Assembly (NCBI RefSeq): GCF_037042905.1
Contig: NC_087251.1
Span: forward strand, 27,902,001-27,966,000
Direction of reading: 5' to 3'
Length of the DNA: 64,000 bases
DNA from: Lytechinus pictus
Taxonomy: Eukaryota
In this document: positions 4,901-45,300 of the stretch, in pieces
Position numbering within the stretch: position 1 is the stretch's first letter
Layout of the letters: every line of letters starts with the position of its first letter
Made by a program: the position numbers and the translations under genes
Notes under the pieces: model-generated
What the model was told of the DNA's origin: nothing
The model's input: the letters and a program-made list of their open reading frames with translations, nothing else
Database searches by the model: none

Positions 4901-5068
4901 GATAGGGGGGGGCGGGCCCCTTGCCCCCCTGGATCTGCCTATGGATGGAGCTCAATTTTACAGCTTTCTTACGGCGTACGTTTGATTCCAAGATACTCGA
5001 GAATGCCTTGAGTACTTCTTACATCAAACGTACGGCCGACGTATGACTCTGTGCACTCCCTTTGTCTA

Positions 5069-5360
5069 GGGGGTAGTTGTCCGGGGGGTAGTTGTCTGGG
5101 GGGTAGTTGTCCGGGGGGTAGTTGTCCGGGGGGTAGTTGTCCGGGGGGTAATTGTCCGGGGGGTAATTGTCCGGGGGGTAGTTGTCCGGGGGGTAATTGT
5201 CCGGGGGGGTAGTTGTCCGGGGGGTAATTGTCCTCGGGGGGTAGTTGTCCTCAGGGGGTAATTGTCCGGGGGGTAATTGTCCGGGGGGTAATTGTCCTCG
5301 GGGGGTAATTGTCCGGGGGGTAGTTGTCCGGGGGGTGATTGTCCAGGGGGTAGTTGTCCT
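5069..5360 (-). repeat. 15/16-bp G-rich tandem repeat (GGGGGGTARTTGTCC)n
   Basis: Directly visible, about 19 units. Confidence 0.95.
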
Positions 5361-5620
5361 GATACCCTAAATGACATATTATCTTGAAGGATGGCCCACT
5401 ATTTTCGCTAGTCTCTATCTTTCTTTTGATACTGCACATATTCCAAGAAAATATTGAAAATATACGTAGCGGAACAACCAAAATACAGAGACTGAAGCTT
5501 TTGGTCTATAAGCCACCATAAGACTCCAATACAAGGCGAGATTATGATCCGCTACACCAGCATGATACCTTCACATACACGTAATTTTATGTTGCTCATG
5601 ACCTGATTTTATCTTTACAG

Positions 5621-20700: not shown

Positions 20701-23700
20701 GGAGATGACCAGGGACTGTCGTCCATCATTCCTGGTCCTGTCAGGATGTTGTCCGCAGGACATGAGCTGATACCAGATCTTGATGAGAAGACCTTGAAAG
20801 AAATGAGTTTCAGTGATGCAAGGGTAAGGAGGTCTTATGATTATTATGTAATAGCAGTGATAGTGATAATGGAAAGGTGATGACTAAGGTGTGTCGTCCA
20901 TCATTCCTGGACCGGTCAGGATGTTATTGGCAGAGCACGAGCTGATACCAGATCTTGATGAGAAGACCTTGAAAGAAATGAGTTTCAGTGATGCAAGGGT
21001 AAGGAGGTCTTAAGATTATTATGTAATAGCAGTGATAGTGATAATAGAAAGGTGATGACTGAGGTGTGTCGTCCATCATTCCTGGACCGGTCAGGATGTT
21101 ATTGGCAGAGCACGAGCTGATACCAGATCTTGATGAGAAGACCTTGAAAGAAATGAGTTTCAGTGATGCAAGGGTAAGGAGTCATTATGATAATCATGTA
21201 ATATGACAAGCATTCTCTTAGCTATGTAATGTATTCAAGCTGTAGTACTAATCACAGAATGAATTCTAGAAGATTCCAATGAAAATACCAACAGGTATGT
21301 ATGAATAAGTTTTATGTTCCAAATGATTCTGGTAAGAATCGAGTTCAGTAATCATCAAATATGACAAGTTTCAGTCTCAAAGTACTAGTAAAATTCTTCA
21401 TTAATTGTTCTTTTGTTTGTCTTCAGGTGGTGTTTGTATCATTTGGTGCCATGAGGAGAGAGCGTAAGCGTGAAGGGGCCGATCAACCGGCGTCGTGCTT
21501 GCCTCCACCTCCACGAGAGAAACTACCCATGATGCTCTTGCTAGAAGAGCCCCATTTCAGCTGCCTCTTCCATCTTCTTCAGCAACTGAATGAACTCAAA
21601 TGTGATGGCAAACAGGTAAAGTATATTAACCTGTTGAAGACTGAGGTTGCATATATGTGGGCAAGGGTCTATGGAAATTAATGTTATAGCATGATCATCC
21701 AGTTTCCGATAGGTTTAGGTTAATGACCTAGTCCACTCCAACATCCAGTTGATACAAATAAAAAGAGAAGAAAAAATCATTCATTGGAAAATTTATATTT
21801 CATCAAAATCGGATGTATACTAAGAAAGTTATGGCATTTGAAAATTTTGCTTTCATATACAATAAATGAGGGAGCCGATGGCATGCATGTCACAGTCACA
21901 ATTCATATTTCGTATTTTATATGACATATGAAATATTTCATTCCCCCCACCTCCCACCAATAACTCAGACAATGTTTCTTCATCGAACAGATGAAATTGC
22001 CTTGGTTTTAAGTGTTTAATGATTCAGTCATTCTTTCTGTACACCTTGTTCAGGAGGAAGAGTCCGAAAGAGACCTTGAGAGCCGAGCACAGATGCTGTC
22101 AAGGAATGTTTGGGATCTTCTAATGCTCTTACCTACCAGCCCTGATGTACTCAACGGCTTCAAGACCTTACCTGCTATCAAGGTTCGGGAATATTCTTGT
22201 ATACCCCTCTTGTGTTATCTTTGCTCTATTTTGATTATATGGCATTTTCAAAATCAGGTAATAATAATTATGCTTAATAATGCACGGACAAATATCAGAA
22301 GCATGTTTTATTTTTTAAGTGAGAAAATTTCATCTCAAGCAGGAGATGCACAGATCCTACATCCACAGATTAAGCAGGGGAAATTCCAAGTCAAATGCGA
22401 TAACTGGAGATTTCACCAAAAAGCATCAAAGCTGGAGATATGGGGATCTGCATTTCTCAAAAGGACTATGACAAAACTATCATGTTTTGGGGGCTTTTCA
22501 TAGTTAGATTATTTCATACTGATGAACACCCCAGTTGAGATGGGCCTTGAACAATACTAAAGAAACACATATAATTATTATGCTTAGCTCAACCCCAGCA
22601 AAGCAAAGGCAGTGGTCAGCAAGACCAAGGCATCTCAGTCATCAAAGAATGGAGATGACAAGGAGGATTTAAATGGGACGCCCTCTGGAGGTGAACTCGC
22701 ACCAGTAGACTGGGGCAAACTGCTGACAGAAAACAAGCCCCACAAGCTTCTCTACTCCCTTCAAATCATCGAGGCCCTTGGGCAACCTAGCAAGAAACAG
22801 CGTAGCAAATCTGTGGTAGGTCTCCTTTTATTTTAAGATAGACGTTTTAATTTTTTCTCAATTCCATATCATTTATTAGAATATTTGCCAAGACATAAAG
22901 AAATACCTAAGTCATGATCTATGTAGGAAAGAAAGAAAAGTTCTCATTTATCTAAATTTTTACTTGATCTATAACAATTTATATCTTTCACCTGCAAATC
23001 TAGACATTTTACATTCTTATGTATCTGAAAGAGTCTTAAGCAGTGATTCCAACATAATTTATTGAAGATTTATCTATTATCATACCAATAATGGTAAAAG
23101 ATGAACAACATATTATTGCAAAACAATTCAATGAACATCATATAGTAAGTGTACCAGTTTGGTAAGGTGTCCTCTGGGAGGACTTGCCCCTATGTTGCCT
23201 GTTGCAGAAAGAGTTGTGTTTAAACTGAACTGGATAAAAATCAAGTGCAAATCGAAGATAATGCTTATGATTGGTTAAAAATAAGGTTATGTTTGATTTC
23301 TTGAGATGTGTTTGATTGCAACCATTTTTTAAACATGCTCTTAGGAACTTTTACTCAGGGGGAGATGGCATCCAGGAGCTTTTTCCATGTGGGAATCAAA
23401 TCTGGGAGAGGAGAAGGGGGGGGGGATGTCCTGTTACTCTTGATGAAATTCATTGCCTCATCTTGTATGTATTTCTTACTGATTTCATTAGGCTTCTCTA
23501 GGATCCAGTGAGCACTCCTCCAGCATGGCAGATATGGCAGCAATGAAGGTAAAAAAGGTCAGGAAAATTTTGTTGTCTTAGATAGATTTTTTTTCTTCAA
23601 ATTTTCAATTATTTTCAACATTCTCCTAGAGAGATCTGAAGAGATTATTTTCAGTCAATTGCATGTTGATTGGTAAAATTTGCAATTTTGATTACAGAAA

Positions 23701-26700
23701 ACCATATTTTATATAGCGATCAAAAGCAAATTTGCAAGTTCCTTGCAGTGCCTACTAAATTTTGTTCTAAAGATCAATAATTAATATGTGGTTGTTATTT
23801 CAGTGCTTAAAACTAATTATGAGACTTATTCAGTGGTACGCACCCCTCCCCCCCAAAAAAAAAAATATATATGTATATATAATAATGATAATAATGAATA
23901 AATGAATAAAAAGATAAAATAAAATAATAAATAAATTATTAAACCACAAATTAATATCATAGTTATGAATTAAAGTTTACAGAATAGCTTTGTATGCCTG
24001 TGTCATTATCACAGATGGTGATGTGCACTGTCACTCACTTGCTACCATAAACTGAACTCTTAACATATCAAATGCCATAGTTGAAAATCAGCATCACATA
24101 GCACATATAATTCCTATAGAGAGCCACAATTTCTGAGACATAAAGAGAGTTAAGCCTTACACTTCACCTTTTAACTAAGTATTTTACATGTGTGACCCTC
24201 AGTTTAGAAAGAAAAAACTATTGATTTGATTTTGATTTGATTTATTTATTTCCGTTTTACAATTGTACATAATATGATGAACATAACATAGCAAGGTCAA
24301 AAATACTACCAGACAAAATATAATTTATATAACATATTCATAAATTTAAGGAACATAATTCAGTAAATAAAGATATCTCAAATGACATTTGTATTTAAAG
24401 TAAAACGGAGGGACTTGCCGAAAAAAGCAAAGCTTGTACAAGAGGCAAGCCCCTTTCTTAGTTCCATTACAAAATTACAACAAATAAATATTGGGTCTAA
24501 ATAATAACTTTGTTTAAAAATAAATACAAACAATTTTATGCACTTGACAAAAACGTAACTGATGGATTGTGTGAGAGAATATTAAGTTTTACAATATTAT
24601 AAGAGAGGGGGAGAAGACAGGAGGGAAAGAGGGGTGCAGTACAGTAAGTAGAAAGAAAGAAGAAGGCGGGCAGCAGGAGCAGGTACTTTGGCTAATTGCA
24701 ATTTTAAGAAGAAAAAATAAAACAAATAATATACATGACTTGTGTACATAATATGGGCGCATGTACACAAAAGTCGAGTATAATTAAATTAGTTGTTCAC
24801 AGCTTGACCTGTTTGCAGCGAGTATTGCAGAATTAACATTTTTTTCAGTTTGCGTTTAAAAATATTTACGTTGGGGGATTCTTTGAAATCTTGAGGCAGA
24901 GAGTTCCAGTAGGCAGGCCCGGAGAAGACAAATGAATTCTTTGCAAATAGAGTTCTTGTTAAAGGAAGATGATAATATTGTCGTTGCCTTGTTGGGTAGC
25001 AGTGTACGGATGCATTTTTACGGAACATTTTAGAGAAAATGGCGGGGAGGTCGTCCTTGCTTAATTTGAACATAAATTGACTAAGTTCGAAAAGATATAT
25101 GTCACTTACTTTAAGAATGTTATTTTCAAAAAATAAGATATCAGTATGTGATCTAAAGTGTGTTTGAAAAATTATTCTTAGAGCTTTTTTCTGGAGAAGT
25201 AATATTCTATTTAGTTGTGTTTGTATTGCACATCCCCAGGCAATAATTCCAGAATTAATATATGGTAGAATAAGGGTGTAATATAATGTTAACAAAGTGC
25301 GGGAAGGGAGAAAATGTTTGAGTTTATTAATAATTCCAATGTTTCTAGAAATTGTTTTACATATACTATCGATATGAGGCTTCCAGGATAATTTGTCGTC
25401 AATAAGGACACCCAAGAATCTTGTAGTGGAAACATTATTAAGAACGAAATTGTCAAAGAAAATACTGTCAGGTAGAGTATTGATTTTATTACTGAAAAGC
25501 ATGTAGTTTGTCTTCTGGTGATTAAGCGAAAGTTTGTTGGCCTTGATCCAATCTGTAACATTTGTTAGTTCAAAATTTACGATTCTAACGAGTTGATTAA
25601 TATCATCGTGTGAAAAGAAAATATTGGAGTCATCAGCAAAAAGTATAAATGAAAGTAAATTTGATGTATTTTTAATATCATTGATGTAAGTAATGAAGAG
25701 AAGTGGGCCTAGCAGGCTACCCTGGGGGACACCACACGTAATTGGTAGAGTAGTCGAATTGCTATTATTCACTGATACGAACTGTGTCCTATCAGTGAGG
25801 TAACTCCTGAACCACTCCAAGGCCTTCCCTCTAACTCCATAATGACACAGTTTATGAAGGAGAATTTCATGATTTATAGTGTCGAAGGCCTTGGAGAAGT
25901 CCAGGAAAATACCGACAGTATGACAACTATTATCGATGGAAGTGGTGACTTTATTAATAAATGACAAAATTGCATGGGAAGTACTATGGTTTTTACGGAA
26001 TCCAAATTGGAAGTTTGAAAAAATGTTGTGTAATTTGAAAAAATCACTTGTTCTGATATGGACAAGTTTTTCTAAAATTTTAGATAATGAAGTTAGTAAG
26101 GATATTGGACGATAGTTGGAAACGAGTTGGCTATCACCTTTTTTGAAAAGTGGGATGACTTTGGAGATTTTCATTTTATTGGGGACCCGTCCAGTGCTAA
26201 GAGAGATATTAAAGATATGTACTAATGGATCAACGATGGCTGTAATGATTTTTTTTAGAAGAAAGTTGGGTATACCGTCATACCCCGGGCTTTTCTTATT
26301 TTGTAGATTGCTAACAATATTTATGATTTCCATCGAATTAGTAGGATTAAAAAACATGGAATTGGGGTTGGGGTCATCAAGGAAATCAGAAAAGGATTTG
26401 TTAGTTCGAGGTATATTTTTAGCCAAGTTGTTGCCAACATTTGAAAAATATGAATTGAACTCTCGTGTGATTATATTAGTGTCGTCTGTAATAGTATTGT
26501 TTGATTTTATTTTTGTGATTGTAGAGCTTTTTTTCTTTTTGTTGAGTACATTATTAATAATCTTCCAAGTATTTTTCATATCATTTTTGTAAATGTTTAA
26601 TTGGGAAGTGTAGTATTCCTTTTTGGCTATACGTAATAAAGTGGTAAGGGTGTTTTTATAACAAGTGTACTTAGAACGAGAGTTTTCGCTTGGTTTAGAA

Positions 26701-29700
26701 ATGTATTTATAATACAGATTATTTTTACGGTTAATAGATCGTAAGATAGATTTAGTAATCCACGGATGTATTGGGATTTTTTTATAATTTGACTTTCGGT
26801 TGATGATAAGAGGGACGTGGGTGTCTAGAGAATATGTTAATTTGGTAATAAAAGAGTCGTAAGCTACATCAACCTCTGTGGAGTCAAAAATGGTCGACCA
26901 GTCTGTATTGTCTAAATCATTAATTAAATAGGAAATGTTATCATCGGTTATTTTACGATAGGAAGTATTATATGATTCATTCTTAAATATTTTACTTTTA
27001 GACAACTTCGCAAAAATTGAAAAGTGATCAGAAATATCGCTAAGGACTATACCAGCTTGGGGGGTAGGATATGTTACATTACTAAAAATATTATCTATAA
27101 TAGTTGCAGAAGTGTTAGTTACTCTCGTTGGTTTAGTAATTAGTGGTAGGAAGGAATTAGTAAGAAACGTTTCGAGAAACTCTTGCGAGATATTGTTAGT
27201 GTTGCAATTCATTAAATTGATGTTGAAATCCCCCATAAAAAAACAATCTTTGTTTTTCAGAAAAGGATTGAGTAAAAAGTCATTGAGGGTTTCCAGAAAA
27301 TGTTGAGTATTTGAATTTGGAGGTCGGTATAAAACTCCCAGTATCAGATTTTTTCCTTTTGGATTGATGATTTCAACAAAGAGTGATTCTAGAGCGTCAT
27401 TGGATAGAGTCATATTACTTATAAGATTATATTCGTATTGCTGGGGTATATAAAGTGCAACACCGCCACCGGGTCTAAGAGTTCTGTTATTAACAACTAG
27501 ATTAAAATCAGAGAGTTCAAAAAGAGAGCAAGGATTTTCCGCGAACCACGTTTCAGTTAATCCAATGATTGAATGTTTCGGAAACTGATTATTATCAAGA
27601 AATAATTTTAACTTATCGAAATTTTTCTTGGCACTACGAATATTTAGATGGAGAAGAAAAATATCTTCTTCAAGACTGCTAGAATTAATTAAAGATTTAA
27701 AATGTTGTTCTGTAAAATACTGTGAAGTAATAATCTGTCCACATGGGTCATTTGGGTCAAAGTTTGAGTTAAGATCAGCGGTATTATCATTCAGGTAGTT
27801 TTTTATGTAAGTATCAAAATAGGGGTTTTCTGACGAAGCGCCGCGTTGCGATGAAAGGGACAACAGGTCATCGTTGCATAACGAGCTGAATGGAAAGTCA
27901 GACAAGTCAGCCGTCGGAGCCGGGAAGAATCACACTAGTTACGCTAAAAGAGTAGACACGCCGCCATGCTCCCGCTCCTGTTGCTGTGCAAGAAGAGGGA
28001 AACGGAAGGAACGAAAGTATGCTGTGCAAGAGAAATAGACAATACAAGTTTAAAGGAAGAAAAGTAAAATGGGAAGATAAGAGATAAGAAATCCGAACCA
28101 GACCAGATACGAGAACGATCATTACTAATGTACTACGAGAATGAAAAAAATAAATAATAATAATAATGAATAAATAAATAAAGAAAGAAAGAAAAAAGAA
28201 AGAAAAACAAAATAAATAAAAAACAGATGTAATTGAAAATGCTACAGACAAACCCACGTGATGAGGTGGAAATAAGAATTTTTTGCATTTCTCCCTTAGA
28301 AATGATAAAATCGTTGATTATACCTTATGAAAACGATAACAAATCAGTTAGCAGGTGTTCGATGAGCAGTTTAAAAACCAGTTGCTTAAACAGTTAAAAC
28401 GTTCTCCATTATTTTTGCATAACGCTGTCCATCACGAAAGCCCCACAGTTTTTCTGTTTAAGTGTATAAAGTCTTGAATAACAAAGTTTACTTTCTTATA
28501 TTTATCAACAGGAAACAACGAATGAAAATATCATATAGCAAATATGCACTATTTAACATAAATCAAAACATCGCTTTTACTTAGTAGTTATGATTTTAAT
28601 AAGAATTATCCTCTTTCAGCAATCAGTGGCTTATTATGTTAAATAAATAACATGAAGTTAAGAACTCCAAGTTATTACAATTATTTACCTGTATACAAAT
28701 ATCAGTATAGAGCAAGACCAGAATAAGTTGTGTTGGTAACGTTGCAATCAGTATAACAAAGTATAGGAAGTCTGATTTATGCTTCCAGACCCGCAAAAAC
28801 GTACTTTCACACTTTTTGAATAGCGTGCGAATTGACAAGAAATTTAATATAGTATGTAATAATATATTTTGATGAGTAATTTTGGATACAATACAACCAA
28901 GGTGATAGTAATTCAAACCAGATTCGTTTTCGAGGGGGGGGGGGTCTCATCCAGTTACTAAACGCTTTCCAAGCGCTGTCGTGTTATGCAACAATTGGAG
29001 TTCAACCTTTTCGTTGTTATGCAATTGCCACTGGTCAGAAATGAGTCCGTTGAATTCCAAACTATACAGTGCACCAATAATGATTGGAAGTTTAAACAAG
29101 TATATGGGCTACTTCGATCGTAATGCAGTATGGCAATTGGTGAATGCTGCAGCTGACACAATGTAAAAATGCTTGAGAATCTGGAGCAGGCTAAGATGCC
29201 CAGTAAAATTGCTATCTCTATATAGAGAAATATGTAGTGAAAGCGATAATAGATTAAAAATTTCGTTTATCTAGATTGTAAGCATTGTAATAAAATGCAA
29301 GAAAAGCATGCAACATTGGGAGCTGTCACATTCATCCAAGAAACCATCTGCACCTCCGAGCAACCGTTTGTCTAAAAATAATAAGGGTACACGGAAAGCA
29401 TTCAGCTGACTCGATTGGTATTGCGATTTAACTCAAGTAATTGCATACGTTAGTCGGATGGATATACATGTTGTCATAACAGAAGGATGCAAGGCTTAAC
29501 AAGTTTCAACCAAGGAAGGGCAATTCTTGATAAAAAAAAATGTTTGCTAGCACCAAGTTCAGATTGTCATTGGTTATGCAACTATAGATGTACGAAACCT
29601 ACATGCATCAATTAATGTTGGGTCGTTGATCGGGGATCAAGCGTTGCGTGTCGAGAACTGTTCGCTATGTACAATTTGAAATACTCATGAGTTAAATTGT

Positions 29701-30318: not shown

Positions 30319-33300
30319 GTGCTAAACATAATTATTTGTCAGGCCCCAGCAAATTTTTGGTACAGAGATATATAATAGTTGATGTATGTGAAAATTGCAT
30401 ACCTGAAAGAGATGGTCTGAATCATAACAAGGTATACTTTGGTATAACATTAGAATGCATGCTATCTTCAACGTGTATATTTGTAAAGTTTATATTAAAA
30501 TTATTCACAAGCATGCAGTTGCAAGCTATTATATTCAGCTATTATAAAAAATCATGAAGGCAAATTGTGGTCAGTCAATTTAATATCACGTTTTGATATT
30601 CTTACAGAGTAAAAGTGACACCAATGTATATGACATGGAAAGTGATGTAGATGCCCTCACACAAAGACCATGGAGTACGATGGTAAGAGGAATCATTTGC
30701 ACAGATTTATTTCTAATCCAAGAAATCTATGGTGCCTTATGAAGCTGCTTTAGTTGAATTGATTATTTAACTAAAATGCTTATTATGTAAAACTGCAGTT
30801 ACAAACAGAAATTGTATTTCATGTCATGAAACTTGTTTTGTCATGTCATCGCACCAATCATATGAGACTTCAGTGATCTATCGAAAATACCGGGCAAAAG
30901 GATATATGGGGGATATCAGTGATTTTCCTCCAAATTATGGGAAACAGTCCTACAGTTTGTTGCAAGAGTCCCTTAGATTTCTATAGAGTTCATTACGAAG
31001 TGCCATTTGGCATGAAAGACGTAGGAAAACAGCCCATGCTCAGGGGGCACGTTGTTCTCAGATAATCACAAGTCCAAAATGATGAAGTTGTGTGTGATTG
31101 AAAATCTTTCTGCAATGGCCAGTGAACATATGATTTTCCCTGCTGTAGATGCCTTATAATGATGTATTCTTTTGTCTCTCCTATCCAGTTTATCAGTTGT
31201 GGAGGTCTGAAGCATCTATTTGGTATCTTTATGTCAGCTTGTCTGGAGACGCGGGATGACACCCAGTGGAATTTTGTAAGTTCAGAGTTCTTGACTGTGT
31301 TGATGTGTACATACGCACAGAAAATAAATTATTCTTTTTCCTATGCTTCTTGAAATTTATGAAAGTTCAGTGCCTCTGTCATTGGCTTTGAAAAACGTTG
31401 CGCTCTTTGTAGTTTTCTCCATTTGTACCTTAATAAAAGAATGTGTCCGATAGACACCTTGCCCTGAAAATTTCGAAATTGGAGGCCTGATGGATGTGTT
31501 TGATTTTTTAATGTAATGATTTGATGAGCATGCCTGTAGACCTTGCTTGGTCATATCAGTGGCCAAGGGAGGGGGATTTACATGCAAGATTGATATCACA
31601 TTGGATGTATATCACAGGATTTAGGATAATCTCATCTTTGGTCCTGGCATCTTATGTTACAATAACCTTGTTATTTGAATACTGTTGTTTGTTTAAATAC
31701 TGTTTGAATACTGTTTAAAAGAACAAAAGGAATGTGATTGTCAAAGCTATTGATACTTCAGGACAATGCGTAAAATAGCCAGTTATTTTTAGCTTACTAT
31801 GTTTTCTGGAAGAAAGGCCTTGTATCCATATATTTGAAGTGATTTTAGATTTAATATCAGTTTCATATCTAATTTCTTATATTCAGTAGTATTGCTGTTA
31901 TTGTATTTGTGCTGGAAATCTCCCAAGGGAGTGGACAGTGGCTGTGGTGATAACGTATTTGTACAGCACTTGGAGATGTTTCAATATATCAAGCGCTAAA
32001 CAAAGGAATTATACTATTATCATTCTTTCATTTATTATAGATCAACAGGCATAATCAAAATACAATATACAGTTCCACAACAAGTAAGATTCAGAACAAT
32101 GAAACATTTTCTGAATTTATTCACGTCATTTCAATATCTTTCTCTTAATCAAAACATATTGGCAGTTTTGTAAGTAGGGTTCTAAGTAATGAAAAATTCA
32201 TAATTTTATTCACTTCAAGGATTCTGAAAGACAACCTGGTTTTAGCCTTTTGCTCAGAAAATTCAACTTTTCTTCTCTGTAGTGGGAGCAGGAATGCCTA
32301 GCATCTGTCCTGAAGCTCATCAATGAGTTTGCATCGGAGGAAGCGTTGAATGAACCCAGTAGTGATCTAGATGAAGTCTTTGATGAACCACCCTCGTCTT
32401 CCTCATCGTCCAGTGAGGAGGTACCAAGGAAGAGGGCCAGGACAGCAGCGAGACAAAGGAAGGATAGTACAGACTCTGGTAGACTCACCGTCAGGTTCTC
32501 TGCTGTAAGTCCAGGGCCCAGTCTTACAAAGATTTGGACTCGCTTCAAATCAATCTCAAATTCAAACCTGCCAAGTGGTTCTATGAAATAATCCTGTTGT
32601 GAGGAAAAGATTTAGATTGTACTGTTAAGTGAATGAAATGCCAATTAAACTGTCCTTTTTAATAAATAGAACATACAGGAGCTACTACTCCAACTTGTTT
32701 AGTGAATTAAATGCTAATTCAACTGTCTTTTTTTAATTAAAAAAAATATGCAGGATCTACTATTCCATCATCCCATCTTGTGTAGTGATTAAAATGTCTA
32801 TTTGTGTGGAGTTTTTTATAATTAGAAAATGTGGGAGCTGCAATCAGCTGCTAGCTCTACCTTATTAGTAAATAAAATACCAGTTTAATTTTTTTTCAAA
32901 TGTTTAATAAACAGAAAATGCAGGAGCTGCTAGCCCAACCTGGTGTGTTAGAGAGGCTAATGGGTGTATTATACAAAGCTGCTTCTCCTGGGGACTCCAC
33001 TCTTGTGCAGGCAGGTTACTGGGGTAAGTATCAATGGAAGCGTTATATATTTTCTTAATGAAATCAATGTACAGAGGAGCATTTCATAAAACAAATAGAC
33101 AATGATTTAATACCAACTATAGCTTAAAGTACTGTATACCTCGCCTCTAATTGACTAAAAGAATTAGTTTTTGTTTGTTATGTTCTTCATGTTACCTCAT
33201 GGAATCACATTATGGTATCATTCAATTTGATTGGCTGATGGTAAACTTGTTACAGAAAATTTGCATTTGTTATAAAAAAAAATGTCTTTATGAAATGAGA

Positions 33301-36300
33301 CCCAAGTAGTTGCAAGTTCCCTCTCATATTCAGGGTCAACTGGATTTTGATTTTATTGTGCCTTGTAAATATTGTTAGTTAATTACTGGGTGTAAGCCAA
33401 AGCATATTTTTTGCATTAAAGTTTCTGAAGCTTCCTGAATTTACGTTATATGAGATGATGTTTATATGTGGCATAGTGATTATAATTGATAACTTTATTT
33501 GTTTCCTATTTTCTATGTGACGATATACAAGACATCAAAATTCTTTTTATTTCTATGTGTATCTAAGAAGCTTAGCCTTAGATCACCCATTTTCTTCACA
33601 TAATGTGTAATAAGTTGACTGATAAATTGTAATAAAGCATGCCTGTAGACCTTGCTTGGTCATATTAGTGGCCAAGGGAGGGGGATTTCCATGCAAGATA
33701 AAAGCCTATCAAATGGTTGGTATACTCTGTAGATCTATCCAATCTATAGATATCTACCTTTGTGTGCTACATTCATGCAATGTTGTATTTTATTAGCTTG
33801 TAGGTTTGGCCTGAAATATGATTCCCTTTTCAATACTAAGAGCCAATTCAAGGAGCCTACATCTTTCGGTCTTTCTATTCACGAGTACAAGTCACATTTT
33901 TTATTGTATATTTCATGTGTAATCTACTATGAAAAATTCCACCTAGGGTGCTTGTCAATTCCATTATATGACCTAACCCTGAAATGTATTGTACATCATT
34001 CTATCTTTCTATTTGTCGAAGTTAGAAAGAAAAGCTTCATTATTTTCTTTTGAGTATGAACAATGGGGAATCTAGGACCCATAACACAACACATAAGGCT
34101 TGATCGTTGGGCTGATATTTATGCTCGAATACATAGATCATTATGTACAATCAAGCGCACAAGTCAACTGTATGATCAGTCACTACGTTTTGTATTACAG
34201 GCTTAGGCATTGCTCAATGATGAGAATAGTACATATGGCCCTTTTTAAAAATTCTTTGATACAAGTTATAGGAAAATATGCAATACACAGAATTAAGCAG
34301 TTACAAAAGACAGCAGTAGTCAGGTCTTCAATTTTAATATTTTTAGGGCAATGTCACTTTTCGATTGAGTACATTTCTATGTAACAGCACAAATTAAAAA
34401 CTGTAAGAGGACATAAAACTTCAAGGCCAATTAGATGGGCATTGGAGTCAATCAAAGACATCCACGACAGTGTTCTTTGATGACCTTCGCTGAAATTAAG
34501 CCCTGAGAAGTGATTATAATCAACGTCTTGTTTTTTTTTTTATCAGTTGTACATTATGCAATGAAGTTGTTGGTGTCATGGGCATCCACAGACCCGGAAG
34601 TAAAGATGGCTATTGGTCAGTATGAGAAGCTTGACCAGTGGTTACGAAGGCTAACACTTCAGACCAATGAGGTGAGTCAGGTTTAGATTATAGGTCATTT
34701 GTAAGGTTAAATTGAGAGAGGTTAAAAAAGAAAGCAGTATGTATATCAGTTAGATTTACTTTTAGTGTTTATTCAAATTCAGTTATTTATTTAATTCAAC
34801 TTTATCTGATTCCATATAAAAGTAGTAACACCAAGATACATAATTATTATTATGATTATTCATTCGGCATTTCAAAATACATAAATTATAGTACAATACA
34901 AATTACATAAACAATAGGACACGTGACATAGTACAAAGGACCTGGAATAGAGATGAAGGGGCTGCCTGGGTTTGGAAAAGGTTAAATAAAATAACCATGA
35001 CCCACAGGTCTTCCCACATCCCTTTACCTCCATCCAGGTCAGTATAAGAATATGAATATAATATAAATAATAATTAATACAAATTAACAATTTTTCACTT
35101 TGTATTGTATTTTTCTTTGAATATTACTGTATAATTATCTTTTTTTTTAATGGTTGAACTTAATAAATGAAATGAAATAAAAAAATTTCCTTTAATATCG
35201 ATGCAGTACTAAAGATGCAATGACAATGAAAATAGAAATTTGGTTGTTTTAAAACAAATTGGTTGGGGGGTTTTAACAGCCATCTTGGGGAAAATTATAG
35301 ATATTCAACAAAAGCTTAGGCCCCTTTTGACTTTCTAATTCAACAATTTAGAGAGTTCTATGTCTCATTTTGAAAATTGTAGTGCAGGGATGAATTTTTA
35401 AGACTAATTTTCAGGGGCTCCCCTTTGAGCTTGACTGCTCGATTTTAATTTTTGATGAAGATTTTACATTGCACAATATTGAAATGTGATGTTCAGGTTT
35501 CGTTTAAGAGTATTTTTACCCCTCATAATCAAGTATCTTTTCTATGCTGGAAATTTTATATTTATTTATGTTGGAAGACTCTGTGAATCTTGTTGAAAAT
35601 TACCAAATTCTGAGAGCATGCACTGCTGGAACATCTGATCCAGCAAGCAAATTGAAGTTTTAGAAGAAATCCATTTAATAACAAAATGTATGTCCTGATC
35701 ACTGTGCATGGGAAGAATGTGAATGCATCATATGAATCCCACTAAATGGGATTTTTTTTTCCCACTTTACATTATTTGTAAGTTGACCTCCCAATTCCCA
35801 AACACTTGTTTTCTTCAATCTCGAATATCTGTTATCCACCTGTAGATCTACATCAGACGAGAGGTGTGTGATGGTCTGTTCAGACTGTGTGAAGGCCTTG
35901 ACCCATCCAGTCAACATTTCTTATGGTCTCTACTCAGAAGTCTCTTCACTTCATTAGATACAGCACTCAACCTACAACCAAAAAAGGTATATTCTTTTTA
36001 GAATTCAAGAAATCTGAGAATTTGTTTCTTATGTTGAGGGCAAAAGCTTAATCAATACTTATTTTCAACCAACACAGATGAACCTTCATGATGACAAGGT
36101 ATATTCTTAATTTAGACATTAGGATTTTCAAGAATTTGTTAATTTGATACCCATCTCTCTCACTAGTGGGTGGGCTTCTAGGTGAATTATTCTTGCTTTT
36201 TTTCTGCGGTAGATAATATGTAATTTTAGATTTCAAAACATAGCCCGTGACATCAAATCTTCTCTCCCTTAATGCTCCACTCTCCATCTTCATGCGCAGT

Positions 36301-39300
36301 AAGGTTGGTTTCCACATCAGATTCCGCATCGTGGATGAGGATTCTTAATCTCCCAAATCTTGTATTTCAAGACATGAATGCAGTGATTTTCCAAATTCAC
36401 AAACACATTTATCTTCAAACTGCAGGAAGTGGCTTGTCACCCAGTTGTGCCCTTAAGTACCTAGAGTAAGATTTTACCGCACTCAATTTCACCTACAAAA
36501 TATCTCACTGTACGGAGCTACTTGGGTGCTTCCTGGTAACATTCACTCATTGCGAAATTGGAGTATGAAGCAAAAATGAACTGGCTGATTTAGTGAAGCC
36601 AACACAGAGTTATAAATAACTTGAATTCATGAGATTAATTTATGCACAAAATACATTACATCATTCCTTCTTCCTATGTCATATTTGCAGGGAAGTGACA
36701 AGAGCTGCGATGACAGTATCCCTAGTTGCCGTGACTACTTCTGGCTCCTGTGTCTGTTGATGGACAACCTCCATTGGCAGGGAGACAGTCCCCATGCTAG
36801 TGGGGTTGGGGTTGGAGCAGGCAGGATTGACCCAGAGAAGGTCAATGCTGAGCTAGACTCCTTCACCTCACTGCTCTCCCAGAAGATTGAAAGGTAAGAT
36901 GTCAGGAGGATTTCATGACTGAGGAAAGAACAAGCTTTTTGAGAGAGCTTGTGGTCCCAAAGTGTGCTGTATGAGAATGTCATGGCTTATGAAAGAACAA
37001 GCTTTTTGAGAGAGCTTGTGGTCCCAAAGTGTGCTGTATGAGAATTTCAAGGCTTATGAAAGAACAAGCTTTTTGAGAGAGCTTGTGGTCCCAAAGTGTG
37101 CTGTATGAGAATTTCATGGCTTATGAAAGAACAAGCTTTTTGAGAGAGCTTGTGGTCCCAAAGTGTGCTGTATGAGAATTTCATGGCTTATGAAAGAACA
37201 AGCTTTTTGAGAGAGCTTGTGGTCCCAAAGTGTGCTGTATGAGAATTTCATGGCTTATGAAAGAACAAGCTTTTTGAGAGAGCTTGTGGTCCCAAAGTGT
37301 GCTGTATGAGAATTTCATGGCTTATGAAAGAACAAGCTTTTTGAGAGAGCTTGTGGTCCCAAAGTGTGCTGTATGAGAATTTCATGGCTTATGAAAGAAC
37401 AAGCTTTTTGAGAGAGCTTGTGGTCCCAAAGTGTGCTGTATGATAATTTCATGGCTTATGAAAGAACAAGCTTTTTGAGAGAGCTTGTGGTCCCAAAGTG
37501 TGCTGTATGAGAATTTCATGGCTTATGAAAGAACAAGCTTTTTGAGAGAGCTTGTGGTCCCAAAGTGTGCTGTATGAGAATTTCATGGCTTATGAAAGAA
37601 CAAGCTTTTTGAGAGAGCTTGTGGTCCCAAAGTGTGCTGTATGAGAATTTCATGGCTTATGAAAGAACAAGCTTTTTGAGAGAGCTTGTGGTCCCAAAGT
37701 GTGCTGTATGAGAATTTCATGGCTTAGGAAAGAACAAGCTTTTTGAGAGAGCTTGTCCCAAAGTGTGCTGTATGAGAATTTCATGGCTTATGAAAGAACA
37801 AGCTTTTTGAGAGAGCTTGTCCCAAAGTGTGCTGTATGAGAATTTCATGGCTTATGAAAGAACAAGCTTTTTGAGAGAGCTTGTGGTCCCAAAGTGTGCT
37901 GTATGAGAATTTCATGGCTTATGAAAGAACAAGCTTTTTGAGAGAGCTTGTGGTCCCAAAGTGTGCTGTATGAGAATTTCATGGCTTAGGAAAGAACAAG
38001 CTTTTTGAGAGAGCTTGTGGTCCCAAAGTGTGCTGTATGAGAATTTCATGGCTTAGGAAAGAACAAGCTTTTTGAGAGAGCTTGTCCCAAAGTGTGCTGT
38101 ATGAGAATTTCATGGCTTATGAAAGAACAAGCTTTTTGAGAGAGCTTGTGGTCCCAAAGTGTGCTGTATGAGAATTTCATGGCTTAGGAAAGAACAAGCT
38201 TTTTGAGAGAGCTTGTGGTCCCAAAGTGTGCTGTATGAGAATTTCATGGCTTATGAAAGAAAATTCTTGCGAGAATGATTTAAAGATTGAAGAGATAACC
38301 AAAACCTTACATGTTTTTAAATTAATAATTCCAGTGATTATGAACATTTTCCATACAAAGCTCTTTGAGAGGGCATGTTGTCCTGAAATAGTGTATCAGA
38401 GAGCAAACTGATATATGAATAGGAAAACTGATACTATGTGTGTGTAATTGTGTGACAGTACAAGTCCTGCAGCAATTACCTTTTATTGAAAATCTTGTAG
38501 TTAACAATTCTACAAATTCAATGATTGTGTGAGTAGGTCAAGGCATATTGTCTCATTTTCTTCCCTTAATAGATTTCATAATGGACATTTCTTATCTTAC
38601 ATGGAAGATTCAAAAGAGGATAATTAATAGCAAAGTTATGTCATTATTTGTTCAAAAAATTGATATTTTAATCTGTCAAAATGTTATGATAATTACCCAT
38701 TTACAAATATCTGTCCTCTTCCCTGCAGCCGTCCCATCCTGGAAGGTCGTCATAGCACTGTAGAGGATTTAGCTCTAGCTGGTCTCATCAAGCTATGTAC
38801 AGCAGCTGTTAAACACAATCCACCATTCAAGTTCAGTGAAGGTGGACAGGTAAGGCATTATTCTGATCTTTCTTAGGAGTGTTGTGGTCTCGCCTTTGAA
38901 ACAGAGGTTGTATGGTTCGAATCCCAGTCATGACATAATTTCCTTCAGCAAGAAATTGGTCCACAATGTGCTGAGGTGAATGGGTACCTGGCAGGATTAA
39001 TTCCTTAAATGCACCAAGCGCTATTAAGCAGTTGTAGATAAAGCCAGGGTAATATATAGTGTATAATGAATAAACAACTAGATAATCAGCACCTTACAAA
39101 TGCTATGTTATTACTATTATCTAAAATATATTTTAAAACACACTCCCTTTGCCTGATCTGCACCACATTATAAAGACTATTTCACCTTTTGTTATCGCAC
39201 AGAATAAAAGTTTTAATTCTAACCATGATGTGATAATATTATTTTGCATTTATAAAACATTTGATACATTTAAAAAAAATAGTAAAAACCAATAGCAATA

Positions 39301-42300
39301 CTACATATTTCGGATAAACCTGACACTTCTCTGAAATTTCGAAGAATTCAATGATTTGTCCTATTCTTGGCTTATTATTTTCTTATAGTGTGTGACGCTA
39401 ATTTTTTGTATCTCCTTTAACCATTTCTTCACTTACTTTCTTGTGCAGAAGTTTGTAGAGACTGTCTTTGACTGCCTGTTCTCACTGCCGACCCCCGGAC
39501 ACCAGAATCTACCCAAGTGCAAATCAAGAACCAGTCGACTGGCAGGATTTGATCTCCTTCTAGAGCTGGCTAGAGAATGCCAGGCAAACTATACACTGCT
39601 TCACAAGCTAATGTTCCAGCAGCATGCGCCAAGTGAGTGTAAAATTATTTCCTGCTTTGGAAGTCATATTCCTGTTTATACTATGTTGTTTTATAAGGTA
39701 TAATGAATTGTTGAACATAACATTTTTGTAAAAGAGTGAAAAACAGTCAAATCTGTCTATTATACTGTTCAATGTTAATGATGTATGCTGCTTTTTTAAA
39801 GCGCTTAGAAACACCATGTATTAAGCGCTATATAAATACAATGTATTATTATTATTATTATTATTAAGACTTTAAAGAAAGATACCAAAAGCTATTCAAA
39901 TTTGTAGTCTTGATAGACAAATGGTCCTTCTGTACATTTAGTCATGACAACAGGTTTGACTTTAAAAGATTTCTGATGAAGCCACCCTGTTTTAGAAAGA
40001 CTTAGTAAAGGAATAAAAGACTAAACCTTTTCTATTTTTGTATCTGTTATTTTCAGACACCCATCCGCCCTATCCCTGGGAATACTGGCCCCAGGATGAC
40101 AGTCGATCATCATGTGGTTACGTTGGTCTGACTAACCTTGGTGCAACCTGCTACATGGCTTCCTGTATGCAACAACTCTTCATGATGCCTGAGGCTAGAG
40201 CTCCCATCCTGCAAGCAAAGGTAGGACATCTTATTTCTCCTTTTTGACATTTGTTTTCACCTGTAGGGCACTTAATTTCTCTTTAATGACATTTGAATTC
40301 ATCTTTAGTTTTAAGCACCTTGTCCAGTGTGGGATTCTATTACATTCTATCTAAAATATTCAGTGTAACTGTACATGTAATAGCATTGGGGGCAGGGTTG
40401 TCATCAGGAACTTGTTTTTTAAGTGGTAGAAATTTTCTTGCCTAGCCACATGGTTTCAGGAGAATGACAGCCAGTCAGTTTTCAGGGCTCGAACATAAAA
40501 AAATCATGTTTCTACACACAGTACTGTTGCTGCAGCACCAAGCATCGTATTTATTTGGGTCATGGCAACCCCATATAAACAGGTATTTTTCTTACTCTCT
40601 TTGCAGTAATTTAAAATGTAACATTATTAAATGAGTACCATAATGTCATATATCTGAATGTATGTGTACTTGTGATTATTCCTTGTCTTATTTTAGGTAA
40701 GTGAGGCAAACAAGCACGCCAGCATCTTGAGTGAGACTCAGCGGATGTTTGCCTATCTCCAGGAGAGCGAGAGGAAGGCGTACAACCCTCGTAGCTTCTG
40801 CAGGGTGTACACCATGGACAAGCAGCCCCTGAACACAGCAGAACAGAAGGATATGACAGAGTTCTTTACTGATCTCATCAGTAAGATGGAGGAAATGACT
40901 CCAAGACTGGTAAGTCAAGTTCATAATATTCAAGTGCTAAATACATCAACGCGAAGTCTCTGAGCACTTTACTGATATATTATTTGTTAATCAAATTATT
41001 TGCTTGTCCACATGCGCTTTCTCCACTTAATGGGAAGCTCTCACGCAGGAGTTTCTACGGTAAAATACTAGGCATACCTCATTGACTTTCCCATCCTATT
41101 GGATACCCTTTTAACATCTGGTTTGATTGGGGCTAAGTGTAGATTGATGTCTTATCAGAGGGCACTAGTGCTTCCATGGGATTAGAACACACAACTCTGG
41201 TGACAAGGCAGAAGTTTAACCACTACACCAAACAACTTCCAGCACCCTTTTTGACCATCGATTGTGGAACAAATTTTCATGGTCGATTACATTGACCACA
41301 ATGTACAAACAATCATAAAAATTAGTTGTTGTGATCGGTCACTTAGCTTTCATTGGAGGACCCTAGTCTATCAATTGAGTGCATCAAATTGGGATGAAAC
41401 TTGTTGCAGACAGATTGAAATTAATTTGAGCTCTAAGAATATAACTTATTGAATTAAAGATGCGTCAAAACCAGAGAGTCTATTGATTGTGTAATGCAGA
41501 GGGAATGGCATTGTTATTATAGAAAATTCAGTCACCTAATATTCTATATTACTTTTATATTTATTTTATAACAGAAAAACACTGTAAGTAGCCTGTTCAA
41601 AGGAGAGCTGACAAACAATGTTGTATCCTTGGTGAGTATACACATTTTCGTGAAGTTGTGAACGTTTAAGTCTCAATAGAAGGTTGATCAAATTTAGATG
41701 GATTTCTGGCTTGTACCCAGTAAATACAGCAGAATACAATCATGAAACCTGCAAGATTCGGACTTGTCGTCCAATGATTGCCAGGCAGCGACTCTACCAA
41801 CAGCTCTGCTTCTTATATGTTTTGCCTTTTAAATATTTTTAATTGTTTATCGGGTGCAAGCCAAAATCTCTTTGCATTAATTCCTGCCAGTTCCTGAATT
41901 TTCAATGTGTGGGATGATTCTTGTATGTGTCATAGGGGTTGTAATTTGTGTAGTGTCTTTTGTTTAGTATCTCTCCCCTTGTGATAAACAAGACAGCATT
42001 AAAATCATTTTTCATTTGTGCACATTTAGACAAAGGACCTCCCTTTTTTGCACCTAATGCATAAGAATTTGACTATGAGATTGTAATAAAGCATGCCTGT
42101 AGACCTTGCTTGGTCATATTAGTGGCCAAGGGAGGGGGATTTCCATGCAATATTAATATCACATTGGATGTATATCACAGGATTAAGAAATATTACATTT
42201 TCCGATCCTATCATCTTTTGTTACAGTTTTAGATTCAGCATGTGTTACAGTTAAGAATGTCAATATACATGTACTGCATGATTTTTCTCGCCTATTGATT

Positions 42301-45300
42301 CTTGTTTCATGTTTGTAAATGGATTGCATTTGGTATTGAATTTCCTTAAAAGTAGCTTATTAATCTTTTGTTGTTAGTTGTAAAATAGGTATGTCTATGC
42401 ATGGTTATCTTTCTCCAATTATGAGAATCCAAAATCTTTTCAATTCATAGGACTGCCCTCACGTGAGTCAGACGACAGAGGAGTTCTTTACCGTCAGATG
42501 CCAAGTGGCTGATATGAAGAATCTTTACGTAAGTGACTATCATATACTGTTCAGATTACAATCATACCTCACATTGTAATCCCAGGTTTAAAAGAAGTAT
42601 AGTCTCAAATTTTAGGGATGGCTGTGGATATATATCTCCCAATCACAGAAATTTTCTTTTAGCCTCTCCCTCCATTTCACTCTAATCAATTAATCCTCTT
42701 CCGTTAGTCCAACCTTCCTACTCGCCTATATCACATGCCACTTTTGTCTTTCTCTTTTCCTTGATCCATGAAACTTATTCAGCAGTCATTGTTAATAGAA
42801 GACATAATTGCTCTTGAAATTGATGTTTATATTTGTATTGAGATTTCAAAATGTCTTGCACACACACACACACCAGGGTGCGACATAAGCGCTTGCCCGA
42901 TTGCCCGGGGCAAGTAAAAGTTAGAGTCGGGCAAGTGTTTTGAAGCAAAGACAAAACTGCTTGCCCGAATCGGGCAAGCAAAATTCTCCTATGGAAATTA
43001 TATTTTAGAAAGATTCCCCATATTTCACCATCAAAATATAGAAAAGAAAAACAGACAAAAAAAAGCAATATCATTAATTTCTTCTTTCAAAAAAGTTTAT
43101 AATTCGAATTGCAAAATTTGCGCCATTTTCTGCAATAAACACACAGCTCAGAGACGTACACACACACACAGAATCAATGGCAGTCTAGCATACCTAGCTA
43201 GCTAGCGCCTAGTCCACGCAGCCGATGCATGTAGTTAAGTTTCTACGGAGTACGGTGCTGCATGAACGAAGTTTGCTCTGGAAGAAATCTCCCACAGAAC
43301 TGTCAAAATTCACATTTCTTACCAATGAAAATTCTTGTAATGTCCATATTTCCTAAAAATTGGGGTAGCTCTGTCATTTGTAAGCAGTAAAAGGAGAAAT
43401 TTTCACTTCTGTTATGCTTAAAAAAGATCGGGTTTCGAATGATCGTCTGTGTCGCACACACTGAAATACATTGTTTGACAGTCCCACATATGCATTTGTG
43501 TGTATGTTGATAAACGTTTCTTTAGCCAAGGAAATTGATAAATTTTCTTCTTTATTTATGACTGGATAGTTTGAACTTTCTTCCTCTCTATTTTCTTTCT
43601 GCCTATCTTTCCTTCTTTTGAATCTCTCTTTATTTCTTTAAATTTCCTTCCTTCTTTTGTTCATTTTTTATGTTACTATTGCTGTCTTTCTTGTTGTCAT
43701 TCTTTTCTTTCTATCTTTTTTTCTTTCTTCCTTCCATCCAACCATTGTTTACCTCTTTCTTTCTTTCATCCTTCCTTCTTTTTCCCCTTCCTTTCATTCT
43801 TTCTTACTGCCTTCCTTCCGTCCATCCATTCTTTACCTTTTATTCCTGTCTTTTTTTTCTTCCTTACTTTCTTCATCCTTTTCATTCTTTCTTTCCTTCA
43901 TTCCTTCCTTTCTTTTTGTCTTTCATTCTTTCTTTCTCCTTCCTTTCTTTCTTTCCTTCTTTTATTTTTATTTATTTCTGTTTTATTTCAGCAGGGTAGC
44001 CCTTTCAGTTACAAAACTGCTCTACCAAGGGGCCCTTTCTTTTTTCCATCCATCTTTTCTTTTCTTCCTTATTTTTTCTTTCTGCCTTCCTTCATCTCTT
44101 TCCTTCCTTCATTTCTTTCTGTCTTTCGTTGTATCTTTATTTTCTTTTTTCCCTTCCTTCCATCTATCCTTATACCTTTTCTTTCTTCCTATCTTCCTTC
44201 TTTCCTTTTTCTCATTTTCTTTCTTTCTCTTTTCCTTCCTTCCATCAATCCTTTACCTTTTCTTTTTCTCTTTTCTTTCTTCCTTTCTTTCTTTTTACCT
44301 TTTTTCTTTCTTTTTCTTTTTTCATTCGTTCCTTTCTTTCCTTCCTTTCTCTTCCCCTCAGTTTTTTTTCTATTTTTTTCCTTCCATCTTTCTTTCTTTC
44401 TGATTTTCTTTTTTTTTGTCTTTTGATCTTTCTTTTTTTTTCTTCCTTATTTTTTCTTTCTGCCTTCCTTCATCTCTTTCCTCCATTCCTTCCTTCATTT
44501 CTTTCTGTCTTTCGTTGTATCTTTCTTTTCTTTTTTTCCTTCCTTCCATCTATCCTTATTACTTTTTTTTCTTCCTTCTTTCCTTTCTCTCGTTTTCTTT
44601 CTTTCCCTTTTCCTTCCTTTCTGTTTACCTTTTTTCTTTCTTGTTTTCCTTTTATTCATTCCTTTCTTTCCTTCCTTTCTCTTCCTCTCATTTTTTTTCT
44701 ATTTTTTTTTCTTTTTTCTTTCCATCTTTCTCTTCCCCGCAGCCATTCTCTCTCTTTCTTTCTTTCTTTCTTTTTTTTTTCTTTCTTCCTTCCTTTATTT
44801 CTTCGTCCTTTCTTCTTACTTTTTTTTCTTTCATTCTCTCCCCCTCTCTTGATTTTTTTTTCTCTGGTTATTTTCAGTGATTTCCCCTTTTGTTATTGTG
44901 TGTCCTAGTCCCCTCCAAAATATATGGAAAATATATGAGATTAGGAAATTAATTAAAGAGCATATTTACCATTCATTTTGTCATGATGTTCAAGATAAAA
45001 ATCATTAAAAAAAAGAAATAAAACTACAAGGTACATCAGTAGTCATGTTGAAAAATGTATTTTTAAAGCCGTCAATGGTATGGTACATGTATGTAAAACT
45101 ATAAGGCTATAACTTGTTTTGAAGAAATAAAACTTTGTTTTGAAGGATTTTTTCGGGCAAGTGAAATCTATATTCGGGCAAGTATTTTCCAACTATTTGA
45201 AAATTTACTTGCCCGACTGGGCTAGTAAATTCCAAAAAATTCAAAAAAGTTATGTAGCACCCTGCACACACAAAACCCCTATTCAATGCATGTAGATGGA

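Follow-up and report, generated by a model that had tools for sequence, protein, structure and literature searches.

Putative SNORA58-type box H/ACA RNAs with two kinds of 3' hairpin in USP34 introns of Lytechinus pictus

Three introns of the USP34 gene of Lytechinus pictus hold almost the same 58-nt hairpin, and each copy is followed by a second hairpin that exists in two versions. Two questions are raised by this locus, namely which RNA the repeated hairpin belongs to and how one guide half came to stand beside different 3' halves. The window analysed is a 64,000-nt stretch (contig NC_087251.1, positions 27,902,001 to 27,966,000, forward strand), and all coordinates refer to it unless stated otherwise. 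Judging from their sequences, the three units and a fourth copy in an intron of another gene, GANAB, are very probably paralogous small nucleolar RNAs (snoRNAs) in the box H/ACA class and of SNORA58 (ACA58) type. The account as a whole, in which these paralogs would guide modification of 28S U2689 with the 5' half, carry a 3' half without target and include a likely recombinant copy, is held with strong confidence.

An earlier note on this DNA, made from the sequence alone, had described the hairpin in sense orientation with starts at 31528, 33637 and 42091, and it was located at these positions. Copy 1 (31526..31664, plus strand) consists of the 5' guide hairpin (31528..31585), the H box AGATTG (31587..31592) and a 3' hairpin of type A with its ACA box (31593..31664, ACA at 31659-31661). 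Copy 2 (33635..33774, plus strand) has its 5' hairpin at 33637-33694, the H box at 33696-33701 and the ACA at 33769-33771, with a 3' hairpin of type B. Copy 3 (42089..42228, plus strand) is again of type A, and the corresponding parts are found at 42091-42148, 42150-42155 and 42223-42225. In their 5' hairpins copies 2 and 3 were identical over 61/61 nt, and copy 1 differed from them at two bases, as the note had it, namely RNA positions 32 and 55. The H-box-type hinge lies 14 nt past the pocket and reads AGATTG, AGATAA and ATATTA in copies 1, 2 and 3; the consensus ANANNA is exact in copies 2, 3 and 4, and copy 1 shows the variant ANANNG. Each of the three units continues with a second hairpin and would end three nucleotides after an ACA. 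The ACA follows the 3' stem in all four copies, with an H-to-ACA spacing of 67 nt throughout. Whole-unit folds of copies 1, 2 and 3 gave z scores of -3.4, -3.7 and -3.2, equalled by 0, 0 and 1 of 200 shuffles, and the 3' hairpin of copy 1 reached z -3.8. The boxes and the hairpin-hinge-hairpin-tail fold support the box H/ACA guide RNA family within USP34 introns that had been proposed. The 3' hairpin of copy 3 by itself folds weakly (z -1.3, equalled by 22 of 200 shuffles).

The family was named by comparison with Rfam. An E-value scan of 31000-43000 returned 11 matches, the top three being copies 1, 3 and 2, all to SNORA58 (RF00418), with scores of 41, 40.1 and 38 bits and E values from 5e-5 (copy 1) to 3e-4; the next-best match had an E value of 1.7. 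Copy 4 scored 44.6 bits against the same model. The alignments rest on the 5' hairpin and the hinge, while the 3' hairpin was skipped or poorly aligned. It weighs against the identity that the scan of the window at gathering thresholds gave no match, the cut-off of RF00418 being 75 bits, so that all four copies fall below it. For this reason the units are named SNORA58-type, meaning that the 5' hairpin is homologous, and not full-length Rfam members. The suggestion that they might be orphan guides was not borne out, as all copies match SNORA58 and their pocket reads the 28S site of SNORA58. No UGAG CAB box was present in any of the four copies, which fits a nucleolar rRNA guide. A small Cajal body-specific RNA of the H/ACA type was rejected, given the missing UGAG and the lack of an above-null match in U1, U2, U4, U5, U6, U12 and U6atac.

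In order to read the pocket, rRNAs and small nuclear RNAs (snRNAs) were taken from the same genome (28S, 18S, 5.8S and snRNAs), and 28S positions are counted within the Rfam-defined limits of the 28S gene. The strands GUAGA and GGGAU (31536-31540 and 31573-31577 in copy 1), 14 nt before the H box, pair with 28S GUCCC-U-A-UCUAC around U2689, giving 5 + 5 base pairs or 10 nt in total. When the pocket was scanned in the 14-nt register, U2689 ranked first of 1315 uridines with a score of 24, the next sites reaching 17-19. The consensus pocket of SNORA58, GUAGA / GGGACAGUG, is likewise complementary to the flanks of U2689, the strand GGGACAGUG matching the nine bases that precede it. SNORA58 is listed as the guide for human 28S-U3823 in the part of PMC6984369 that deals with it, and U2689 is inferred to be the equivalent position from the consensus pocket rather than from a human rRNA alignment. 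Several points count against the assignment. The 3' pocket strand pairs over just 5 nt with one wobble, compared with 9 nt in the Rfam consensus. In an all-register scan the score of 24 was not above the best of shuffled targets, whose tops ranged over 19-35 with a median of about 24-25, and in another pocket register a score of 25 was reached by a site in 18S. Since the complementarity alone is no better than that of shuffled targets, the target rests on homology together with the rank.

The pattern predicted before, GAAAUCCC-UN-UCUACAGG with wobbles allowed, had 0 matches in 18S, 5.8S and 28S, because pairing does not go beyond 5 nt on either side of the pocket. Three other sites, 28S U1192, 28S U283 and 18S U337, had higher raw scores in a loose scan, but their pockets break the stems and they were lost under structure constraints. 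A kappa-B-like 10-mer that overlaps the 3' pocket strand was set aside as a coincidence with the guide sequence. A stretch of 18S, GCCC-U-A-UCAAC at position 317 (locus L009), was seen to resemble the 28S target and was the second-best site for two of the homologue pockets described below; it may be the one taken over by Xenopus pug18S-324.

The host gene was identified as USP34 by one exon that matches human USP34 (E 2e-29). The intron of copy 1 (31276-32282) was confirmed by spliced reads with the joint 31275>32283, and a further joint was read at 32504>32915. Loose read ends at the donor at 33023 continue into an exon at 34547, which places the intron of copy 2 at 33024-34546. The intron of copy 3, 41632-42450, is a prediction from GT/AG borders and open frames. 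The fourth copy lies about 1 Mb away on the minus strand (G000:C7:26902209-26902348), in sense between the exons of a GH31 gene, and the best match of this gene among solved structures is neutral alpha-glucosidase AB, GANAB. All four copies are intronic and in sense orientation with their hosts.

The core is not a high-copy repeat of the genome as far as tested, being found at four places by whole-genome BLAST and the RF00418 search. In the latter, 41 of 52071 first-look candidates were scored, so that the count is at least four. A custom model of the 5' hairpin gave no further copy in the window or in a 19.8 kb GANAB region, this model not having been run genome-wide; it also covered 15 of the 25 metagenome loci described next without a further copy, and strongly diverged copies may exist elsewhere. 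BLAST with the flank of copy 2 returned only the self-match and missed even the flank of copy 3, so that it says little about repeats.

In order to evaluate conservation beyond this genome, metagenome contigs were scanned with a pattern, and 25 loci (L030-L054), 18 of them distinct, were obtained. An RPL29 exon motif was present within 1.2 kb downstream in 23 of the 25, on animal-type contigs, and RPL29 was confirmed by Pfam at all three loci tried. The hinge was ANANNA in nine of the 18 and ANANNG in the other nine. In 16/18 homologues the pairing around 28S U2689 is lengthened by two bases that the search pattern had left free. Compensatory two-sided changes were observed at 7 of 15 pairs, and 96.4% of 330 cells were paired. 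A second hairpin and an ACA were present as well, the ACA being picked automatically 60-90 nt after the stem. These comparisons showed the predicted SNORA58-type fold to be conserved in other animals. Their weight is reduced by the design of the search, as the pocket was prescribed by the pattern and so were 6 of the 15 pairs counted, which makes their invariance a matter of construction; the structure used for covariation was named from the homologue sequences themselves, and relatedness is uncorrected. Among 17 related homologues, compared over 136 pairs, the mean identity was 0.66 in the 3' hairpin and 0.80 in those parts of the 5' hairpin that the pattern did not fix, the lowest 3'-hairpin values stemming from L031, whose ACA box was wrongly picked in this comparison. 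The 3' hairpins of these 17 and of L039 gave no target above shuffled nulls when scanned against the RNAs of the source genome as a stand-in. One GC-rich RNA of SNORA58 type, at L039 (2058-2126, minus strand; identical with L052), has a 3' hairpin of yet another, third kind and no RPL29 exon downstream.

Expression was examined in four runs (X1, X5, X6 and X7) over 31100-34099, a span that ends before copy 3, and about 6% of every raw run was used. Sense reads were present at copy 1 in two of the three raw RNA runs, X6 and X7. The sense depth in the two bins that cover this copy (31500-31699) was 4.26 and 2.08 in X7 and 1.25 and 0.6 in X6, and it was zero in all seven adjoining intron bins (31300-31499 and 31700-32199). 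At 31580 all eight X7 reads carry the C of the other copies, and six of the eight show an exact H box. As evidence for a mature RNA these data are weakened by their thinness, with eight reads in X7 at 31580, two in X6 and none in X5 or X1, and by the absence of any called RNA end over 31100-34099. The reads may moreover be alleles of copy 1 or derive from copy 3. At copy 2 the X7 depth was about 1 on both strands, with some downstream, and shows nothing. It was also observed that reads differ from the assembly at 31580, 31588 and 31592, in each case in the direction of the other copies and of an exact H box. In X7 an exon joint 32504>32918 was seen, three bases further on than the one above; three different letters stand in between, and an allele at the start of the acceptor exon is the probable cause.

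Box H/ACA RNAs are released from the spliced intron, trimmed to three nucleotides past the ACA and assembled with dyskerin, NOP10, NHP2 and GAR1. By analogy, the units would be trimmed from their spliced introns to ACA+3 and would bind the same four proteins, after which the 5' pocket would pair around 28S U2689 and convert this uridine to pseudouridine. The near-invariance of the 5' hairpin would be explained by this shared 28S guide job, and the 3' hairpin would be a half with a structural role, lacking a target and free to vary. Its two versions would be old paralogous states that were later brought together in new combinations by recombination or gene conversion, with the switch between A and B placed between RNA positions 32 and 66.

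Type A is carried by copies 1 and 3 and type B by copies 2 and 4. The common 3' hairpin that had been claimed for copies 1 and 3 was identical at 62 of 77 positions. That of copy 2 had been called unrelated, which was neither shown nor refuted: its identity to type A was 0.50-0.53, with z 1.0-1.7 when the boxes were left out. It is not unique, since copy 4 has the same hairpin at 75/79 nt. A global alignment of A and B with the boxes gave z 2.0-2.4 (12-36 of 1000 shuffles) and short common blocks. No target above shuffled nulls was found for the 3' pocket of either type among 1382 uridines of 18S, 5.8S, 28S, U1, U2, U4, two U5, U6, U12 and U6atac. Searched singly against Rfam, the four 3' hairpins gave no H/ACA match and one chance C/D match, and BLAST revealed no further copy or donor locus for them in the genome. 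The 3' hairpin is most likely structural and target-less.

The flanks of the units carry the evidence on how the two types were distributed. Copies 2 and 3 had been reported to share a diverged upstream flank, and this was confirmed in 246 of 314 paired columns (z 18, 0/200 shuffles); over the last 300 nt, 203 of 284 columns agree. The homologous stretches are 33335..33634 before copy 2 and 41790..42088 before copy 3, both on the plus strand. Among the six pairs of copies this is the only one with a common upstream flank, of about 300 nt. The T at RNA position 32 groups copies 2 and 3 as the flank does, and RNA positions 66, 69 and 70 together with the 3' hairpin group copies 1 with 3 and 2 with 4. 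As copies 2 and 3 have a common flank and 5' hairpin and a different 3' hairpin, one of them is probably a recombinant of two paralogs. It is proposed with modest confidence, from these sequence patterns, that copy 2 (or 3) arose by recombination or gene conversion between A- and B-type paralogs. In the account with the fewest changes, a duplicate of the lineage of copies 2 and 3 would have taken its right half from the GANAB paralog; the mirror account, with copy 1 as the donor of the right half of copy 3, is compatible as well. Against an exchange stand the absence of downstream flank homology in all six pairs of copies, the single informative site within the 5' hairpin, and the fast divergence that the 3' hairpins of SNORA58-type homologues show anyway. 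Neither a poly(A) tail nor a target-site duplication was seen by eye. Just upstream of the shared flank of copy 2, a short intronic stretch at 33217-33273 is deeply covered by reads and contigs on both strands and shows many different loose ends; it resembles a piece of some high-copy repeat.

The strongest alternative does without recombination. Copies 2 and 3 would be the product of one flank-bearing duplication whose 3' hairpins diverged in place, after which copy 3 would have given rise to copy 1 and copy 2 to copy 4. The residual blocks common to A and B when the boxes are included would be expected from such a history, as would the same 67-nt spacing in all four copies, the lower identity of homologue 3' hairpins relative to the unfixed 5' part, and the fungal H/ACA RNAs that combine a conserved with a lineage-specific hairpin in the families described in PMC5824354. 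Once the boxes are left out, the similarity between A and B loses significance, and the identities that lower the homologue figure most come from the mis-picked L031. The similarity is also below what the neutral flank leads one to expect: the A/B score of 32 is under that of all four non-overlapping flank windows (48.5-72.5), and simple neutral simulations, run under five settings, attained it in 0.3-3.9% of cases, or in 1-4% in the three settings nearest the flank score. The same change at site 32 would also be required twice. Divergence in place is given a tentative standing, short of an even chance.

According to a second alternative, shuffling joined a guide hairpin of foreign origin to the 5' hairpin, so that the units would be double guides with different second targets. 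The postulated shuffling of snoRNA halves, in the relevant part of PMC6984369, provides a precedent, and the missing resemblance between A and B without boxes agrees with it, as does type B itself, which kept its pocket strands unchanged between copies without related flanks (75/79). The best type-B candidate is 18S U472 in GAGGUAG-U-G-ACGAA, the top joint match of copies 2 and 4. Against it, 19 of the 30 tops from shuffled targets came up to its score of 22.5 and the pairing includes a G-G mismatch, while the best shared target of type A scored 15.0, reached by 17 of 30. The Rfam and BLAST searches offered neither a related H/ACA hairpin nor a donor locus, and foreign origin is considered improbable. 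A match between 18S U472 and a yeast snR189 site was not confirmed and was not used. The combined scenario, in which copy 2 is a young chimera with its left part from the USP34 copy-3 lineage and its right part from GANAB, and type B a lineage-specific second guide for a site such as 18S U472, is likewise regarded as doubtful. Of the hairpin shuffling proposed in the earlier note, a mosaic within one family, made up of four paralogs in two host genes, found partial support, and the import of a foreign guide hairpin gained neither a donor nor a 3' target.

That the units are decayed or repeat-derived, non-functional copies is very improbable, since the sub-threshold scores, the few reads, the non-consensus H box of copy 1, the upper-stem mismatch of copy 4 and the weak 3' fold of copy 3 are outweighed by 61/61 identity beside a flank that is about 70-78% identical, by the sense position of all four copies in introns, by their number, four being the sole SNORA58-like loci found in the genome, and by the occurrence of the ANANNG box in 9/18 homologues as well.

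Other features were observed around the units. A tandem array with a 67-nt unit, up to 98% identical, occupies 36772-38402 in a USP34 intron, and arrays with units of 15, 163 and 175 nt lie at 5032-5380, 8876-9975 and 20701-21225. Upstream of the units, at 26116-28035, long plus-strand open frames resemble the antisense of a retroelement-type coding region.

Compared with SNORA58/ACA58 (RF00418, clan CL00036), the units are alike in the sequence of the 5' hairpin, the pocket, the 28S site, the position of the H box, a length of about 140 nt and the intronic location. They differ in scoring 38-45 bits against a cut-off of 75, in 3' hairpins that do not align to the model, in pairing over 5 instead of 9 nt and in their hosts, which here are USP34 and GANAB. 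In the sections of PMC6984369 on this family, Xenopus UBAP2L is described as holding three SNORA58 and two retargeted SNORA58-like copies, and the present set resembles it in having several SNORA58 copies in one host gene. It is also like pug18S-324 of the same paper, where diverged SNORA58 paralogs share one host gene; in that case, by the description given, the target was moved to 18S-U324 by point mutations, whereas here all four copies keep the 28S pocket and it is the 3' hairpin that differs.

The postulate in the same source that snoRNA halves evolve and shuffle independently is paralleled, in the portion of PMC5824354 on fungal H/ACA RNAs, by HACA_2/HACA_31, snR189 and snR191, with one conserved and one lineage-specific hairpin each. 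The joining of a conserved guiding hairpin to a variable one is common to these cases and ours. As presented in those parts of the two papers, they compare species or families and have predicted or tested targets; here four paralogs of one genome are compared, a diverged flank brackets the possible crossover, and no target was found for the variable hairpin. Retroposition of snoRNAs with switching of host genes, including a primate ACA58 retrocopy, is described in the corresponding part of PMC1687206. Copies 4 and 1 are like such retroposons in being flankless sense copies in another gene's intron (copy 4 relative to copy 2) or relative to copy 3 (copy 1), and the set is unlike them in showing no poly(A) or target-site duplication by eye and in the upstream, but not downstream, intron sequence shared by copies 2 and 3.

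No account of an invertebrate SNORA58 and no record of these copies was found in the literature, which here excludes Kehr et al. 2014 (cited in PMC6984369) and unexamined supplements. Multi-copy SNORA58 and the independent evolution of hairpins are already published, and the findings point to neither a new mechanism nor a new class of RNA. What is described here is a real, low-copy set of SNORA58-type units, homologous in the 5' half, to which the mosaic history is a modest extra. If the chimeric reading of copy 2 is true, the swapping of snoRNA halves would have been caught with donor, flank and crossover interval still readable. Because the diverged shared flank brackets the possible crossover, the four paralogs form a small natural test of the postulate of independent halves. 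SNORA58-type guides below the Rfam cut-off are extended to this invertebrate and, in RPL29 introns, to other animals, and such sub-cut-off guides could widen the Rfam model.

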